Assembly (NCBI GenBank): GCA_031554075.1
Contig: JAVBKJ010000121.1
Location: 1 to 34,476 of the forward strand
Source: Oscillospiraceae bacterium
GTDB taxonomy: Bacteria > Bacillota > Clostridia > Oscillospirales > UBA929
DNA: 34,476 nucleotides
Direction of reading: 5' to 3'
Below, piece by piece: positions 1,973 to 34,476 of the stretch. The stretch's first letter is position 1, and each line of letters opens with the position of its first letter. The translations under genes were made by a program, and so were the position numbers. The notes under the pieces were generated by a model. The model saw nothing but the letters and a program-made list of their open reading frames with translations. It was not told where the DNA came from and searched no databases.

Positions 1973-4900
1973 ATGCTAGAACATATCTACAATATGTTAG
2001 ATTCCTTGTCGTCACCCGCTATCCTATGGAACTGCATTGATAACCGCATTGTCCATGTCAATGCCTTGGGTGAAACGTTGTTGGCAGACGCCTCGGGCTG
2101 GTCGAAGTCCCAAGGGGCGCACACCTCCTTGCGTGCGTGCCAGCCGCTGACACAGCTCTTTTCGCTAGAGGAACGCTTGGTGCGCCCGATTGTGAAAGCG
2201 CCGATGCTCTTAGAGGACGAACAGGGTCTATTTCTGCCGCTAGAAGGCTTTCTCTATTACCCCCACGCCAACCTCCAAGACCTTGGCATGGGCGCGACGT
2301 TGCTCATATTCCTGCCCATTAGCGACCTAACGAGTGATATTCGGCGCGCGATTCGCGCCATTAATTTCGATGTGCTACACAAAAATGTGGACACAGACGT
2401 GCGTGACCCTGCCTTTTTGCGTCAGATAATCGACGCATTCCCCGGCATGGTGTTTATTAAGGATTTGCAAGGCAAGTACTTGATGTGCAGTGAGGCATTT
2501 GCCCGCTTTGTGGGTCTGCCCTCTCCCGAAGATATTATCGGCAAGACAAGCTTTGATGTGTTGCCCCATACCTCGGCAGAATGGGCGACAAGGTTGGATA
2601 ACAGCCTGTTTGATACCTGTCAGCCCTCGTCTGAGGTGTATCCTTTTGCGTTGGAAAATAATAACTACACCAATTGGCAGCGTGTGTCGCGTTCTCCCCT
2701 GCGCAATGCCAAAGGTGAGATGATTGGTCTTGTCGGCGCGCTTGAGGACGTCGGCGGCGTGCTGGCACTCACAGAAGAACTTACGTACGCCAAGGCACGT
2801 TTTTTAGCCCTGTCCGAAGTGATGGCGTACAACACGTTTGCGCTAATTCTATGGGACCCTGCCAACATGACAGTCAACTATATCTCGAGTAACATTAGTT
2901 ATCTGGGCTTTAAGGCAGGACGTTTTACGCATTTATCCGATTGGGGCAACATTGTACATCCCGATGATAACAGCCTGTTTTGGGATGCGCGTCAGTGCCT
3001 GTTTGATAAATCCCCTTCTGTGGACTTTTGGCAGGAGTACCGTGTTGTCAACAGTAACGGCGATGTGCGCTGGCTTCACGAGCGGATTTCCTCGGTGAAT
3101 GTACCAGGGTCGTTGCTATACCGCAGCATGTTTATCGACACAACGGCGCGACATGAGCAAGAAAACATTACAAAACACATTCATAACCAAGATGTTGCCA
3201 CCGCGTCGAGCATTACGAATATGCACAGCCTACATTTACTGGATATCGTCAGCCGTGAGTACTTACAACAGCTGTCGGATTCTGTGGCACAAACGCTGGG
3301 TGTCAGCTCCAGTATTTTCGACTCGTCTGGCGTGGCACTAACAGACGGCACAGGGCTTTGCAACCTATGCCGCCTGATTCGTGAAACAGAACGCGGTAAC
3401 ACGCTCTGTCATCTTTCGGATGTCAACCTTGGCATTGCCGCGCGTGATGCGGGCGGCTTGGTGGTCGCACCCTGCGAAACAATCGGGCTATACACCGCCG
3501 CCGCGCCGATTACGATGGGCGATTTGCACCTTGGTACGTGGATTATCGGGCGGACGCGCGCTGGCTACACAATTGATGAATCCAACGTCCAAAGTCTTGC
3601 CGCGCGCCTGCAATTAGATACCGATGCGGCGCTTGAGGCATTTCAAGCAATGCCAGAACGCGACAGCAACGAAATTATGCAGATTTTCTCCTTACTCACC
3701 CCGTATGTAAAAGATATCTCCGAGTTTGTGCAACGCAGTTACTTGCTCATGCAGGACACCGAGAAAATGGTGAAGTCGCAAGAGGCGATTACCCAAAGTA
3801 CGGCGATGGAAGCGCTACAATCGAACCTTTACCATGTGTTCTTTAGACCGTCGCAGAACGATACGGCACGCTTTACAGAAGCATTGTCACTTATTTCTGA
3901 TTATTTTGGCTTTAACCGTGCGCTACTGCTCGAACGCCGTCCGCGGTTTTATGAAGTACGTGCGCAGTGGCATCAATCTCAGCTGTCTGATTTCCCCGAG
4001 GAAACCGTCAAGCTGATGGACGTAAAGCAGATTCTTGATATTTGCTCCACACCGAACGAAATTTACCAAATCCACCGCGACCAAATGTCCGACGCATGGT
4101 TGCAGTTTAGCAAAAACCACGAGATGGAAAACACGTTAGCGTGTACTGTCGAAAGTAAAGGGCGTCAACAAGCACTCTTGCAATTTATGCAGGCGGCTGA
4201 CCGTCCCCCCCTGTCTGATACTGAAGTCGGCTTTTTAACACAGATGATGGGGACGATTTCGTCCTTTGTCCTGCTAAAACAAGCCGAGCGCAAAATGCAG
4301 GAAACAAGCGACTCCCTGCAACTGATTCTGAATAATATGCAAGAAAGCATTTATGTTATCGACCAAAAAACGTACGAAGTCATCTTTGCCAATTCGCAGT
4401 TTGATGGCAGAGCCGTCACAGGGTCGAGAGGGGTCAGTTGTTTTAGACTGTTGGGCATGGAAACCCCGTGCGCTTGCTGTGGGCTAGATATGCTCCAAGG
4501 GCAACCCGTCGGCTATAGCTACACCTACGAAACCAGCGAGCGCGCGCCCGGCTCATGGCATTCCATTACCATGACGGTGATGCAGTGGCTAGATGAACGT
4601 CCTGTGTATCTCATTGCTGTGCGCGACATAACCGAGGAAAAAATTCATCAAGAACAATTAATGTACGCCGCCACCTTTGATATGACGCTTAAAATCCCCA
4701 CCATTGGGCGGCTTAATTCGCGGCTAACGCAAATCCTAGAAAAAAAGCGTACCTCAGGCTTTCTATTTTTAATCGAGGTAGACAACCTAAAACTAATCAA
4801 CAACGCCTATGGTCATACCTATGGTGACGCGTTGATGCAGGAAATTGTTACGTTTTTATCGTCACGTGTCCCCGAGGGCGAGTTTGTCTACCGTTATGCC

Positions 4901-32188: not shown

Positions 32189-32265
32189 GCGCCCATAGCT
32201 CAGCAGGATAGAGCAACTGCCTTCTAAGCAGTAGGCCGAGCGTTCGAGTCGCCCTGGGCGTGCCA
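32189..32265 (+). tRNA. tRNA-Arg (anticodon TCT)
   Basis: GCGCCCA/TGGGCGT acceptor stem, ACTGC-CTTCTAA-GCAGT anticodon arm, TTCGAGT T-loop, encoded CCA. Confidence 0.95.
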
Positions 32266-32267
32266 AC

Positions 32268-32304
32268 AAAAAGCCTTGTAGTTTCAACGACTACAAGGCT
32301 TTTT
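32268..32304. terminator. Bidirectional terminator between tRNA-Arg and gpx
   Basis: AAAAAGCCTTGTAGT...ACTACAAGGCTTTTT. Confidence 0.85.
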
Positions 32305-32333
32305 GTATTTATCTAAAGTTGCAAAACAACTGA

Positions 32334-32879
32334 TTATTGTGCCAACAGTTTTTCTATATCAGCGCTGACTTCCTGCGGGTCGGAAACTGGGGAATAACGA
32401 CCAACCACTTGCCCATCTTTGCCGATTAAAAACTTGCCAAAGTTCCAAACAATGTCGGAAGCACCCTTTGTGGTGCGCAATCCCTTGACTGTCAGCTCAA
32501 ATGCCTTTGTCTTTAGGCTGCTCTTGTCCTTGGGGGCTTGTTCCTTGAGCCATGTGAAAAGTGGGGATTCGGATTCCCCATTTACGTCAATTTTCTTAAA
32601 GCGAGGGAACGTCGTGCCGTACTTCATGGTGCAAAATGCAGTGATTTCCTCGTCACTATCGGGAGTTTGTTCCTTAAATTGGTTGCAAGGAAAATCCAAA
32701 ATTTCGAAGCCTTTGTCGTGATACTTCTTGTAAAGCGCCTCCATTGCCTCGTATTGTGGTGTAAGACCGCACTTTGTGGCGGTGTTGACTACAAGCAGTA
32801 CTTTGCCTTTGTAGTCAGCCAACGATACATCCTCATTTTTGTTGTTTTTAACTGTGAAATCGTGAATAGTCATGTTCAT
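32334..32879 (-). CDS. Cys-type glutathione peroxidase-family protein (probably thioredoxin-dependent)
   Basis: NTATKCGLTPQY, LDFPCNQF, WNFGKFLI; extra Cys in 'ITAFC' at the resolving-Cys position. Confidence 0.95.
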   Translation of the reverse strand: MNMTIHDFTVKNNKNEDVSLADYKGKVLLVVNTATKCGLTPQYEAMEALYKKYHDKGFEILDFPCNQFKEQTPDSDEEITAFCTMKYGTTFPRFKKIDVNGESESPLFTWLKEQAPKDKSSLKTKAFELTVKGLRTTKGASDIVWNFGKFLIGKDGQVVGRYSPVSDPQEVSADIEKLLAQ

Positions 32880-32906
32880 GCTCCTTCATATAAATTGTTT
32901 TTGAAC

Positions 32907-33095
32907 TTAGTTGGCGTCCTCGATTTTGACAAATAAATCACATTTGCAATCGCCTTTATGGATAAATTCATCGCAGGGACAAAGCGTTGTGGCATCTTTG
33001 TTCAAACGGCAAGGGCAGTGTCCTTGCTTTTTGTGTAGCCCATTGATAATTTTGGTGACGTGTTCTGTGTCTTCGTTTAGTTTGTACCCATTCAT
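32907..33095 (-). CDS. Minimal ferredoxin:thioredoxin reductase catalytic-subunit-like protein
   Basis: 62 aa with CPC-x9-CPC-x8-CKC followed by LFV, the FTR-c Cys pattern (CPC/CPC/CHC). Confidence 0.85.
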   Translation of the reverse strand: MNGYKLNEDTEHVTKIINGLHKKQGHCPCRLNKDATTLCPCDEFIHKGDCKCDLFVKIEDAN

Positions 33096-33100
33096 GGATG

Positions 33101-33415
33101 TTACTCAGCTCCTTTGGCGCTGTTTATAAATGCCGTTAGTTGGGTGTCGTCTAAAAAGCCCACGTTGGTGACAACGGGTTTGCCATCCCGAAAAACAATG
33201 AGGGTTGGAATGTGGTCGATTGAAAACCGCTCCGCCAAGGTGATATCATCCTCAAGGTCAACCTTAAAAAATTTTACGTCTGTCGTTGCCGCGGATACGC
33301 GCTCAAAGACATCGCTCAGTTTGCCGCAGGTGGGGCAATCTGGTGTAAAAAAATCCACGATGCTAACCCCTGTGACCTGTTCATCAAATGTGTGTTTGTT
33401 GATTTCTGTTGTCAT
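33101..33415 (-). CDS. Thioredoxin-family protein
   Basis: VDFFTPDCPTC, FFKVD, cis-Pro IPTLIVFRDG; ATG 33415 after GGGAGG. Confidence 0.92.
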   Translation of the reverse strand: MTTEINKHTFDEQVTGVSIVDFFTPDCPTCGKLSDVFERVSAATTDVKFFKVDLEDDITLAERFSIDHIPTLIVFRDGKPVVTNVGFLDDTQLTAFINSAKGAE

Positions 33416-33442
33416 ACGGTGCAACCTCCCTTACTGAAACCT

Positions 33443-33471
33443 AGTATACACCACAGAAGTTAATATGTCAA
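33443..33471 (-). promoter_or_regulatory. Consensus sigma-A promoter of the trx-ftr-gpx operon
   Basis: TTGACA-17 bp-TATACT on the minus strand. Confidence 0.85.
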
Positions 33472-33472
33472 G

Positions 33473-33502
33473 CACAATTTAATTGTATTCAATTTAATTT
33501 TA
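33473..33502. promoter_or_regulatory. Tandem OhrR/MarR-type operator
   Basis: Minus strand TAAAATTAAATTGAA-TACAATTAAATTGTG: two adjacent 15-mers resembling the OhrR box TACAATT-N-AATTGTA, abutting the -35. Confidence 0.7.
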
Positions 33503-33610: not shown

Positions 33611-33701
33611 GGAAGCGTATCGAAGTGGTTGTAACGGCCCGCACTCGAAATGCGGTTGTCACGAAAGTGGCACGAGAGTTCGAATCTCTCCGCTTCCGCC
33701 A
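33611..33701 (+). tRNA. tRNA-Ser (anticodon CGA)
   Basis: GGAAGCG/CGCTTCC acceptor stem, CCGCA-CTCGAAA-TGCGG anticodon arm, long variable arm, GAGAG-TTCGAAT-CTCTC, encoded CCA. Confidence 0.96.
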
Positions 33702-33736: not shown

Positions 33737-33816
33737 CCATGCCCGAAAATCGTTTGAAAATTTGTTCCTGTCCCGTTTTTTCTGGTCAACTTCGTAATGT
33801 CTGCCCAAATTTACAC

Positions 33817-33942
33817 TTAAAATTTCGAACCCTCCTGTCCAAGAGTGGTCTTGTCAATCCACGTCATAGCGCTTGCCGATGCCAGCTTAGAATTGAACTC
33901 AAGATGAGCATACGTGTTCGCTGTAATTGCAAAATCGCTGTG
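33817..33942 (-). pseudogene. C-terminal remnant of a tyrosine integrase
   Basis: My translation: HSDFAITANTYAHLEFNSKLASASAMTWIDKTTLGQEGSKF*, matching the (LG)H-S-x4-T-x3-Y-x-H box II of tyrosine recombinases; next to the tRNA 3' end. Confidence 0.75.
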
Positions 33943-34140
33943 GGGCTGTGTCAAGAAAAAGACTAAACAAATTTATTTTTTAAGCAAAAAAATAAAATCT
34001 CTACGTTTTTAGTTATGAAATTTTACTTTAATAATTTAATTCATTCTATGAAAATAATTAAAGCCTATAGGTTTTTCGTAAATAGTAATACTCTTATAAC
34101 ACTACATTCTACCGAAAATACTTATACTGTTCGAAGCACA

Positions 34141-34320
34141 CTATTTGCCGCTATTACCATTTTTATTAGAACCAAGAGCAATGAAACCCGCCGTGACAGC
34201 AAGCGCAAACATGATGTTTTGCCCACCAAATGGATTGGATATTATAGAGTATACCAAATATACAGTGCAAGTACATAATATTACAATGGAGATACCTCGC
34301 AAGATTTTCTTAGTTTTTAA
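34141..34320 (-). pseudogene. Small two-TM membrane protein frame lacking a canonical start
   Basis: Open frame (L)KTKKILRGISIVILCTCTVYLVYSIISNPFGGQNIMFALAVTAGFIALGSNKNGNSGK*, beginning at TTA just after a GAGATGA SD-like sequence. Confidence 0.35.
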
Positions 34321-34476
34321 CGTTTAAATCATCTCAGGCACTACGTAATATTTTGTGTAAAAAGGATTTCTTCACAGTCGTAAATCTCACAATAATCAAT
34401 TGCTTTGTACCGCAAAGCACAATTAGGGTTTGCCCTTAGGTGCCGTGCCCCTACTGAGTTGTCCGAGGTATGCGCG

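Follow-up and report, generated by a model that had tools for sequence, protein, structure and literature searches.

Enzymes related to ferredoxin:thioredoxin reductase (FTR), thioredoxin-dependent peroxidases of the glutathione peroxidase family (GPx) and the regulator OhrR are already known separately. Here we describe a locus of an Oscillospiraceae bacterium, an anaerobe of the gut, in which counterparts of these systems appear to be brought together: on the minus strand, between genes for tRNA-Arg and tRNA-Ser, three co-oriented open reading frames (ORFs) encode an atypical thioredoxin (Trx; gene trx), a small protein resembling the catalytic subunit of FTR, which we call mini-FTR, and a Cys-type GPx (gpx). 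The window, i.e., the whole stretch of DNA that was analysed, is an entire contig of 34,476 bases (JAVBKJ010000121.1, or C96) from a source assembly (G000) of 1.87 Mb in 167 contigs that is 76% complete; other contigs of this assembly are denoted by C and a number, and the loci or genomes of relatives by L and a number. Our reading of the locus, which we put at a little better than an even chance, is that the operon would be a detoxification unit inducible by organic hydroperoxides or H2O2 and controlled by OhrR, in which electrons would pass from ferredoxin to the mini-FTR, from there to the Trx with its CPTC active site, and finally to GPx.

The described proteins closest to the mini-FTR are the ferredoxin:disulfide reductase (FDR) of Methanosarcina acetivorans (PDB entry 4TPU) and the glutaredoxin/FDR fusion of Desulfotalea psychrophila (7PWE), with 36–37% identity over 60–61 residues and structural Z-scores of 6.3–6.4. 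They resemble the mini-FTR in the six-cysteine pattern CPC...CPC...CxC, in having no variable subunit (for the mini-FTR, judged from the three-gene unit) and in their atypical thioredoxin-fold partners of the CPxC type, but the mini-FTR has 62 residues, whereas FDR has 173 and includes a rubredoxin domain, and 7PWE has 196 and includes a glutaredoxin domain. According to the relevant part of PMC6262447, FDR of M. acetivorans reduces an atypical Trx, which a table identifies as the protein with an ACPYC site and the text as the other atypical one. The catalytic subunit of FTR in cyanobacteria and chloroplasts (FTRc or FtrB; 1DJ7, 2PVG, 7BZK) shares its core with the mini-FTR (Z 6.6–6.7, root-mean-square deviation 1.7–1.9 Å over 59 residues), and both have six cysteines and an arginine after the first CPC. 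It differs in being a ~110-residue member of a heterodimer, best known for light-dependent enzyme regulation, whereas the mini-FTR has shorter loops, a lysine within the last cysteine motif and a context of peroxide stress in an anaerobe. Alignments give the spacings CPC-x16-CPC-x8-CHC for FTRc and CPC-x14-CPC-x12-CYC for FDR, compared with x9, x8 and CKC in the mini-FTR. In the sections of PMC9025218 that deal with these enzymes, ferredoxin and Trx are said to contact only the catalytic subunit of FTR, and the variable subunit (FTRV) to be exclusive to oxygenic phototrophs.

The peroxidase has its closest described counterparts in poplar Gpx5 (2P5Q) and yeast Gpx3/HYR1 (3CMI), whose peroxidatic and resolving cysteines align with those of the operon GPx; the difference is that here the Trx partner is encoded in the operon and carries a CPTC site. 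The OhrR–OhrA system of Bacillus subtilis resembles our case in its operator and in the sensing cysteine of its regulator, but its target is an Ohr/OsmC peroxidase instead of trx, mini-FTR and gpx, and in our organism the regulator gene is unlinked. A trxA-trxB-gpx cluster of Clostridium acetobutylicum is under the control of PerR. Such clostridial clusters, like the ferredoxin-dependent flavin thioredoxin reductase (FFTR), follow the same logic of Trx, reductase and GPx as the operon, but their reductase is a ~300-residue flavoenzyme (TrxB or FFTR) in place of a 62-residue protein of the Fe-S type, and the regulatory box is of the PerR type and not of the OhrR type. For FFTR, a route from ferredoxin to Trx is established in Clostridia, as stated in parts of PMC9025218 and PMC5627308. 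The literature searched contained no paper on the 62-residue protein or on the operon, an earlier mention of short clostridial forms (Balsera 2013, Kumar 2015) being possible. New relative to that literature are a form of only 62 residues that stands alone, the systematic association of this form with trx in genomes many of which have no TrxB, and the trx–mini-FTR–gpx cassette with its apparent OhrR control.

Sequence and predicted fold of the mini-FTR

The mini-FTR matches the Pfam family FeThRed_B (PF02943) with 22.0 bits, the gathering cut-off being 22 (25.3 bits in a six-frame search), and no NCBIfam model matches it. A word-indexed search returned 199 related proteins of 58–79 residues, nearly all of them metagenomic; the few that are named are labelled Clostridia or Bacilli, and some members of the family already carry the NCBI label 'ferredoxin thioredoxin reductase catalytic beta chain'. 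An exhaustive profile search yielded 954 clusters (at 50% identity) at E≤1e-3 and 64 at E≤1e-10, and the best 150 of the 954 contain proteins of mostly 50–110 residues. Among 120 aligned homologues the residues G25, H26, C27-P-C29, R30, T37-L38, C39-P-C41, F44, C50, C52 and L54 are invariant. All six cysteines of the FTR/FDR core are kept, and each CxC motif aligns with its counterpart in 4TPU, 7PWE and 2PVG. When compared with the PDB, the family profile matches 4TPU at E = 3.3e-7, 7PWE at 1.6e-5 and classical FTRc chains at about 5e-3.

The AF2 model of the mini-FTR has a pLDDT of 91.6, and its best 13 Foldseek matches are all FDR or FTRc chains (query-normalised TM-score 0.68–0.75). VIA-align superposes 59–61 of the 62 residues on FTRc and FDR structures with a root-mean-square deviation of 1.7–2.6 Å and Z-scores of 6.3–6.7, values below 8 that are weak if taken alone and are here combined with the sequence match. 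The chain ends 10 residues past CKC and has no rubredoxin domain of the FDR type. On the strength of these profile and fold matches, we regard the mini-FTR as an FTR/FDR fold reduced to its core, without the flanking parts of FTRc and without the rubredoxin or glutaredoxin domains of the FDRs. The three-gene unit contains no gene for a variable subunit, the partner of FTRc; no search aimed at such genes was made. A prediction of the complex of the mini-FTR with a 4Fe-4S cluster and the operon Trx scored 0.42, compared with 0.23 for the control, and is counted neither way.

A search for longer proteins with fused forms of the mini-FTR gave one 303-residue protein with a lectin-type domain, which is probably an artefact of gene calling. 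None of 14 longer proteins scanned from the representative search is fused to Trx; PF02943 is found in 10 of the 14 (below the cut-off in two), in some together with SpoIIID, HNH or Fer4_12 parts. One protein of 220 residues (P0255) joins Fer4_12 to an FTR-like domain, and at L070 and L080, both labelled 'uncultured Bacilli', a radical-SAM/Fer4_12 protein of 296–298 residues is encoded immediately 5' of the mini-FTR. Such associations may connect the family with the chemistry of activases or of the anaerobic ribonucleotide reductase.

Pairing with thioredoxin genes and distribution relative to TrxB

Gene neighbourhoods were compared at 80 loci from species-representative genomes, 79 of them with upstream sequence. 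The immediate upstream co-oriented gene encodes a protein of the Pfam Thioredoxin family at 48 of the 79 mini-FTR loci, or at 51 when tblastn matches are included (which adds L039, L043 and L052). At L058 trx is located immediately 3' of the mini-FTR gene, at L047 and L021 it is one or two genes off, and in a more distant tier of FTR-like genes it adjoins at 4 of 6 loci (L005, L007, L008, L010). The Trx proteins encoded beside mini-FTRs are mostly canonical, with WCGPC or WCPPC sites. At L021 the gene directly 5' of the mini-FTR (positions 2307–3971) encodes a 555-residue protein with Pyr_redox_2 and rhodanese domains that resembles CoA-disulfide reductase, and trx is one gene further up. Mini-FTR genes are also found in metagenome-assembled genomes of Actinomycetota (Eggerthellaceae and Coriobacteriaceae; L040, L041, L045, L051; clade support 99/97), where no trx adjoins them and TetR-family genes adjoin two.

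The gene 3' of the pair varies. At 15 loci it is a gene of the ODP/metallo-beta-lactamase type encoding 236–418 residues; all three such genes that were re-scanned include a flavodoxin domain, which is the flavodiiron architecture, and an ORF with a rubredoxin motif follows at 11 of the 15. The order trx (WCGPC), mini-FTR, flavodiiron-type gene and rubredoxin is found at L015, L018, L034, L038, L048, L050, L052, L060, L071, L082 and L089, and the mini-FTRs of these loci, which belong to uncultured Clostridia, fall in one clade. A desulfoferrodoxin gene is present at L017 and L047, and L081 shows the order 2x[4Fe-4S] ferredoxin-motif ORF, trx, mini-FTR, rubrerythrin and rubredoxin. The gene after the mini-FTR is gpx at 5 of the 80 loci (L011, L012, L013, L029, L056); L004 has identities equal to those of L012 and probably represents that genome a second time. 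Because adjacency to trx is common and the third gene is variable, the conserved core is the trx–mini-FTR pair, with oxidative-stress enzymes as a recurrent but variable third element. A preliminary description of the operon, made from the letters of the window, had proposed a neighbourhood search for trx–ftrC–gpx; the trx–mini-FTR part of this arrangement recurs among relatives, whereas gpx accompanies it rarely.

The same neighbourhoods bear on the electron donor. The chain might run as we propose but start from rubredoxin, flavodoxin or an NAD(P)H-linked oxidoreductase instead of ferredoxin, and the rubredoxin genes at the flavodiiron loci and at L081, together with a rubredoxin encoded in the source genome, point in that direction, as do the rubredoxin domain fused to FDR of M. 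acetivorans, the deposition of 4TPU under the molecule name 'Rubredoxin' and the small docking surface that a 62-residue protein offers. We nevertheless think a donor of this kind unlikely: at those loci the flavodiiron and rubrerythrin enzymes themselves would be expected to draw on rubredoxin, rubredoxin potentials are much more positive than those of the Trx disulfide, the ferredoxin-motif ORF of L081 is directly 5' of trx, and the source genome encodes PFOR (1839 bits).

The usual thioredoxin reductase was sought with the TrxB model TIGR01292 at E≤1e-30. In the closest subfamily (L011–L060) it has no match in 38 of 50 genomes, whose completeness is not reported, and the same search was positive in all 14 control genomes. 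A class-wide, even sample comprised 301 Clostridia genomes, 294 of them with at least 90% completeness and at most 5% contamination; an FTR-like gene (A2 profile) was found in 58 of the 301, and 269 of 300 genomes have a TrxB-like gene. With G000 set aside, the TrxB-like gene is lacking in 21 of 57 carriers (21 of 58 when G000 is included), as opposed to 10 of 242 non-carriers, and carriers thus make up 21 of the 31 genomes without it. Among five sampled genomes with a close mini-FTR (E about 1e-33), three have no TIGR01292 match and two a weak one (~187 bits). Under a stricter cut for TrxB (best E < 1e-80) the contrast becomes weaker, at 27 of 57 carriers versus 43 of 242 non-carriers; the cut of 1e-30 was retained because ferredoxin-dependent flavoenzymes may score lower. 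In many uncultured Clostridia the place of the usual thioredoxin reductase seems to be taken by relatives of the mini-FTR. The earlier suggestion that the small protein recharges the neighbouring Trx thereby gains comparative backing, namely from the adjacency to trx, from the enrichment in genomes without TrxB and from the predicted fold with its six cysteines.

These observations also have to be set against the idea that the mini-FTR merely descended from the FTR fold and is now a Zn-binding or non-catalytic Cys-rich partner of Trx, such as a sensor, chaperone or regulator. Its shortened loops, the lysine at the position of the catalytic-site histidine and the Pfam score at the threshold would all agree with such a loss of function. 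We consider this quite improbable in view of the invariance of six cysteines in the FTR pattern across the 120 homologues and the enrichment of carriers among TrxB-less genomes in which a canonical WCGPC Trx is still encoded beside the mini-FTR.

The operon, its peroxidase and its candidate operator

The layout given in the preliminary description, i.e., three co-oriented genes with gaps of 5 and 27 bp, one promoter and one terminator between two tRNAs, is borne out by scans for ORFs, tRNAs and signals (Table 1), and the gene identities proposed there (Trx, FTR catalytic-type protein and Cys-GPx with a candidate resolving Cys) agree with Pfam matches to all three proteins, the Trx being atypical.

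Table 1. Coordinates of the operon, its signals and the flanking tRNA genes in the window
Feature	Position	Strand	Remarks
tRNA-Arg(TCT)	32189-32265	+	Operon boundary, opposite strand to operon
Hairpin terminator	32266-32306	both strands usable	18 pairs, 6 GC; A5/T5 flanks
gpx, Cys-glutathione-peroxidase family (thioredoxin-peroxidase type), 181 aa	32334-32879	-	Pfam GSHPx 4.5e-40
mini-FTR, FTR/FDR-like, 62 aa	32907-33095	-	CPC-x9-CPC-x8-CKC; PF02943 at cut-off
trx, atypical thioredoxin, 104 aa	33101-33415	-	D-C-P-T-C site; Pfam Thioredoxin E 1e-16
Sigma-70-type promoter TTGACA-17-TATACT	33443-33471	-	11/12 consensus matches
Tandem OhrR-type operator, candidate	33473-33502	-	15-mers 33488-33502 and 33473-33487; ends 1 nt 5' of -35 box
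tRNA-Ser(CGA)	33611-33701	+	Operon boundary, opposite strand to operon

The gaps are located at 33096–33100 (trx/mini-FTR) and 32880–32906 (mini-FTR/gpx). The trx ORF extends to a TTG at 33424 (33101–33424) that touches the GGGAGG site; the ATG at 33415 is the likelier start because GGGAGG stands 9 nt upstream of it. For gpx, translation may also start at the second ATG (32873), which stands at a more favourable distance from AAGGAG. The terminator hairpin lies 28 nt past the gpx stop, directly after tRNA-Arg, and is common to the operon and the tRNA gene. The unit contains no ferredoxin gene, and the description of the chain as self-contained, ferredoxin included, had to be given up: donor and regulator are encoded elsewhere.

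The cysteines of the operon GPx are Cys37 (peroxidatic), Cys65 and Cys83, and they align with the three cysteines of yeast HYR1/Gpx3 in chain 3CMI, which places Cys83 at the position of the resolving cysteine, some 46 residues past the peroxidatic one. Cys37 stands in the motif TKCG, the characteristic Gln in FPCNQF and the Trp-Asn in VWNF, and the best PDB matches are 2P5Q (1.5e-46) and 3CMI (5.1e-45); an insertion of ~20 residues (about 117–140) is not found in the yeast chain. By this comparison, the protein is of the 2-Cys, thioredoxin-peroxidase type, as predicted. Neither gshA nor gshF has a match in the source assembly, at its 76% completeness. A second, stand-alone Cys-GPx of 182 residues with the same three cysteines is encoded at C27:998–1546 (L100) of the source genome, and contig C27 contains no OhrR box at ≤2 mismatches.

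The operon Trx has the active site D-C-P-T-C in place of W-C-G-P-C and keeps the cis-proline (IPT); C27, C30 and P70 are invariant in the alignment of its relatives. It scores 70 bits on the model of canonical thioredoxin (TIGR01068, cut-off 96.8) and is thus not a canonical TrxA. Proteins of its type are rare, with 9 relatives at E≤1e-10, all CPxC. Among the cassettes that include gpx, those of the window, L011 and L012 have DCPTC at this site, and those of L013, L029 and L056 have GCPMC or GCPVC.

The source genome also encodes a WCGPC TrxA and a TrxB of 298 residues (333 bits) with the motifs CATC, GGGNTALED and HRRTGFRG, the last being an NADPH motif of the HRR type. A route that dispenses with NADPH altogether, as first supposed, does not fit this gene content; with TrxB, TrxA and a second GPx at hand, the operon is better seen as an added inducible branch than as the sole route. 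One might go further and suppose that GPx is recycled mainly by NADPH-TrxB/TrxA and that the CPTC Trx and mini-FTR serve another task under peroxide stress, such as re-reducing OhrR, repair of oxidised protein thiols or methionine sulfoxide reductases, or protection of Fe-S enzymes. In its favour are the TrxB and TrxA just named, the stand-alone GPx of C27, which needs a reductant encoded elsewhere, and the scarcity of gpx at related loci, where the trx–mini-FTR pair is independent of it. To this possibility we assign a rather small probability, since the mini-FTRs linked to GPx, together with their CPxC Trx, constitute a single clade that travels with GPx across four family labels, and tight spacing with a single promoter argues for one pathway.

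Regarding regulation, the regions 5' of trx in the window, L011, L012 and L013 were aligned, and all four cassettes share an invariant block beside the -35 box; the -35 and -10 boxes are kept as well. On the minus strand of the window the sequence reads, from operator to promoter, TAAAATTAAATTGAA TACAATTAAATTGTG, followed by C and then TTGACA. The ohrA operator of B. subtilis used in OhrR binding assays is given in the corresponding part of PMC2651793 as TACAATTAAATTGTATACAATTAAATTGTA, and the window box is identical to it at 27 of 30 positions (2 and 1 mismatches in the two 15-mer repeats). When up to 2 mismatches are allowed in each 15-mer, the 1.87-Mb assembly contains no other tandem site; isolated 15-mers that differ from the OhrR half-operator at 2 positions are found at C131:7919–7933, C50:27036–27050 and C83:3997–4011. 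A MarR-family gene is contained in the cassettes of L011 and L013 and scores 162 and 149 bits, respectively, on the NCBIfam OhrR model (cut-off 200). Its orthologue in the source genome, 62% identical to the cassette gene and unlinked to the operon, is located at C102:67–486; it scores 172 bits on NF052638, below the 200-bit cut-off, has B. subtilis OhrR (1z91, E 4.1e-40) as its best PDB match and keeps the N-terminal Cys in NQLCF. From these matches, the operon is apparently induced by organic peroxides through OhrR. The proposed peroxide role is strengthened by this operator and by the flavodiiron, superoxide-reductase and rubrerythrin genes beside the trx–mini-FTR pairs of relatives. The C102 gene begins 66 nt from the contig end and has the promoter TTGATT-17-TATACT, 5' of which there seems to be the end of an OhrR-type box, truncated at the edge of the contig; autoregulation is possible. 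Genes resembling ABC transporters follow on its 3' side.

In a tree of 81 mini-FTR sequences (64 columns), in which many forks are unresolved, the six GPx-linked mini-FTRs form one group (support 95/78), within which the window, L011 and L012 stand together (95/81). The labels in this group are Oscillospiraceae, Anaerovoracaceae, 'Eubacteriales' and Lachnospiraceae, and all six members are accompanied by a CPxC Trx. The window's own family is otherwise nearly without the gene, which is found in 1 of 24 other genomes of that family, and the GC content of the cassette is 42.6%, compared with 48.3% for the window; rarity in the family and an AT-richer cassette would be compatible with transfer, base composition being suggestive only. 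Directly past tRNA-Ser (33800–34476) GC falls to 31–36%, and a 45-residue ORF at 33817–33954 on the minus strand resembles the C-terminus of a tyrosine recombinase, with stop-riddled in-frame sequence upstream; it may be a remnant of an integrase at a tRNA attachment site.

As for expression, 59% of the sampled words are present in one metatranscriptome run from an invertebrate-gut metagenome, and contigs of this RNA library cover 32415–32916 and 32974–33414 at 100% identity. The latter spans part of the mini-FTR gene, the 5-nt gap and all of trx; the former reaches 10 nt into the mini-FTR side and was not counted as a bridge between gpx and mini-FTR. A meaningless adjacency, in which transfer would have placed three unrelated genes between the tRNAs that are not co-expressed, would suit the deviating GC content and the rarity in the family, but it strikes us as extremely improbable: L011, L012 and L013 show the same order of genes with the same promoter and operator, the gaps between the genes are short, and mini-FTR and trx are bridged in the RNA library.

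Proposed pathway and its meaning

The pathway, whose ferredoxin donor, Fe-S binding, Trx reduction, OhrR repression and every chemical step we infer from sequence comparisons, would operate as follows. Before induction, the tandem operator abutting the -35 box would be occupied by a repressor of the OhrR type, whose gene lies elsewhere in the genome; a hydroperoxide would release this repressor by oxidising its sensing cysteine. The Cys-GPx would then reduce ROOH or H2O2 through Cys37, leaving, by homology, a Cys37–Cys83 disulfide, which the CPTC Trx is expected to reduce, as the operon and the type of GPx suggest. The Trx in turn would be recharged by the mini-FTR, in which the alignment places a [4Fe-4S] cluster on Cys27, Cys39, Cys41 and Cys50 beside a Cys29–Cys52 redox disulfide. 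As electron donor we envisage a carrier of low potential, most likely ferredoxin that PFOR keeps reduced, as suggested by family membership, adjacency to trx and the anticorrelation with TrxB. In the source organism all this would constitute an extra inducible branch beside the housekeeping NADPH-TrxB/TrxA system.

Several observations weigh against this pathway or against a general role of its reductase. The Pfam score of the mini-FTR is borderline, exactly at the threshold; its CPC-CPC spacing is x9, compared with x16 in FTRc and x14 in FDR, and Lys51 replaces the His of CHC. A bare protein of 62 residues would have to shield a cluster and dock two partners, and the searched literature yielded no biochemical datum for any member of the 58–79-residue subfamily. 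In the class-wide sample 36 of 57 carriers do hold a TrxB-like gene, and the counts of carriers and TrxB ignore kinship among genomes. The NADPH-type TrxB and WCGPC TrxA of the source genome could serve the operon GPx. The OhrR box is absent from L029 and L056 at ≤2 mismatches, and none is seen by eye in L029:3380–3700; at both loci a PNPOx-like gene sits between mini-FTR and gpx. Finally, the depth of the RNA-library contigs is low (3.3–3.7), and carry-over of DNA is possible.

With these points in mind, we advance a wider reading more tentatively, giving it somewhat less than an even chance: the FTR-like proteins of 58–79 residues would be minimal [4Fe-4S] thioredoxin reductases and the sole Trx-reducing enzyme in many uncultured gut Clostridia with small genomes and no TrxB (also in some Bacilli and Actinomycetota), where they would tie all control of thiol redox state directly to the ferredoxin pool, and the cassette of the window would be a mobile, specialised offshoot.

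Strict anaerobes of animal guts face oxygen and lipid or organic hydroperoxides, and many are without the NADPH-thioredoxin reductase known from textbooks. Should an Fe-S protein of 62 residues pass ferredoxin electrons to Trx, this would account for thiol reduction in such organisms. In the mini-FTR we would then see the FTR/FDR fold cut down to its minimal catalytic core, and the proteins of 58–79 residues would be the smallest disulfide reductases known. The operon would represent a compact, NADPH-independent module for peroxide reduction with a known sensor, OhrR, that could be rebuilt from four small proteins, and it would extend the OhrR regulon from the Ohr/OsmC peroxidases to a GPx-thioredoxin system.

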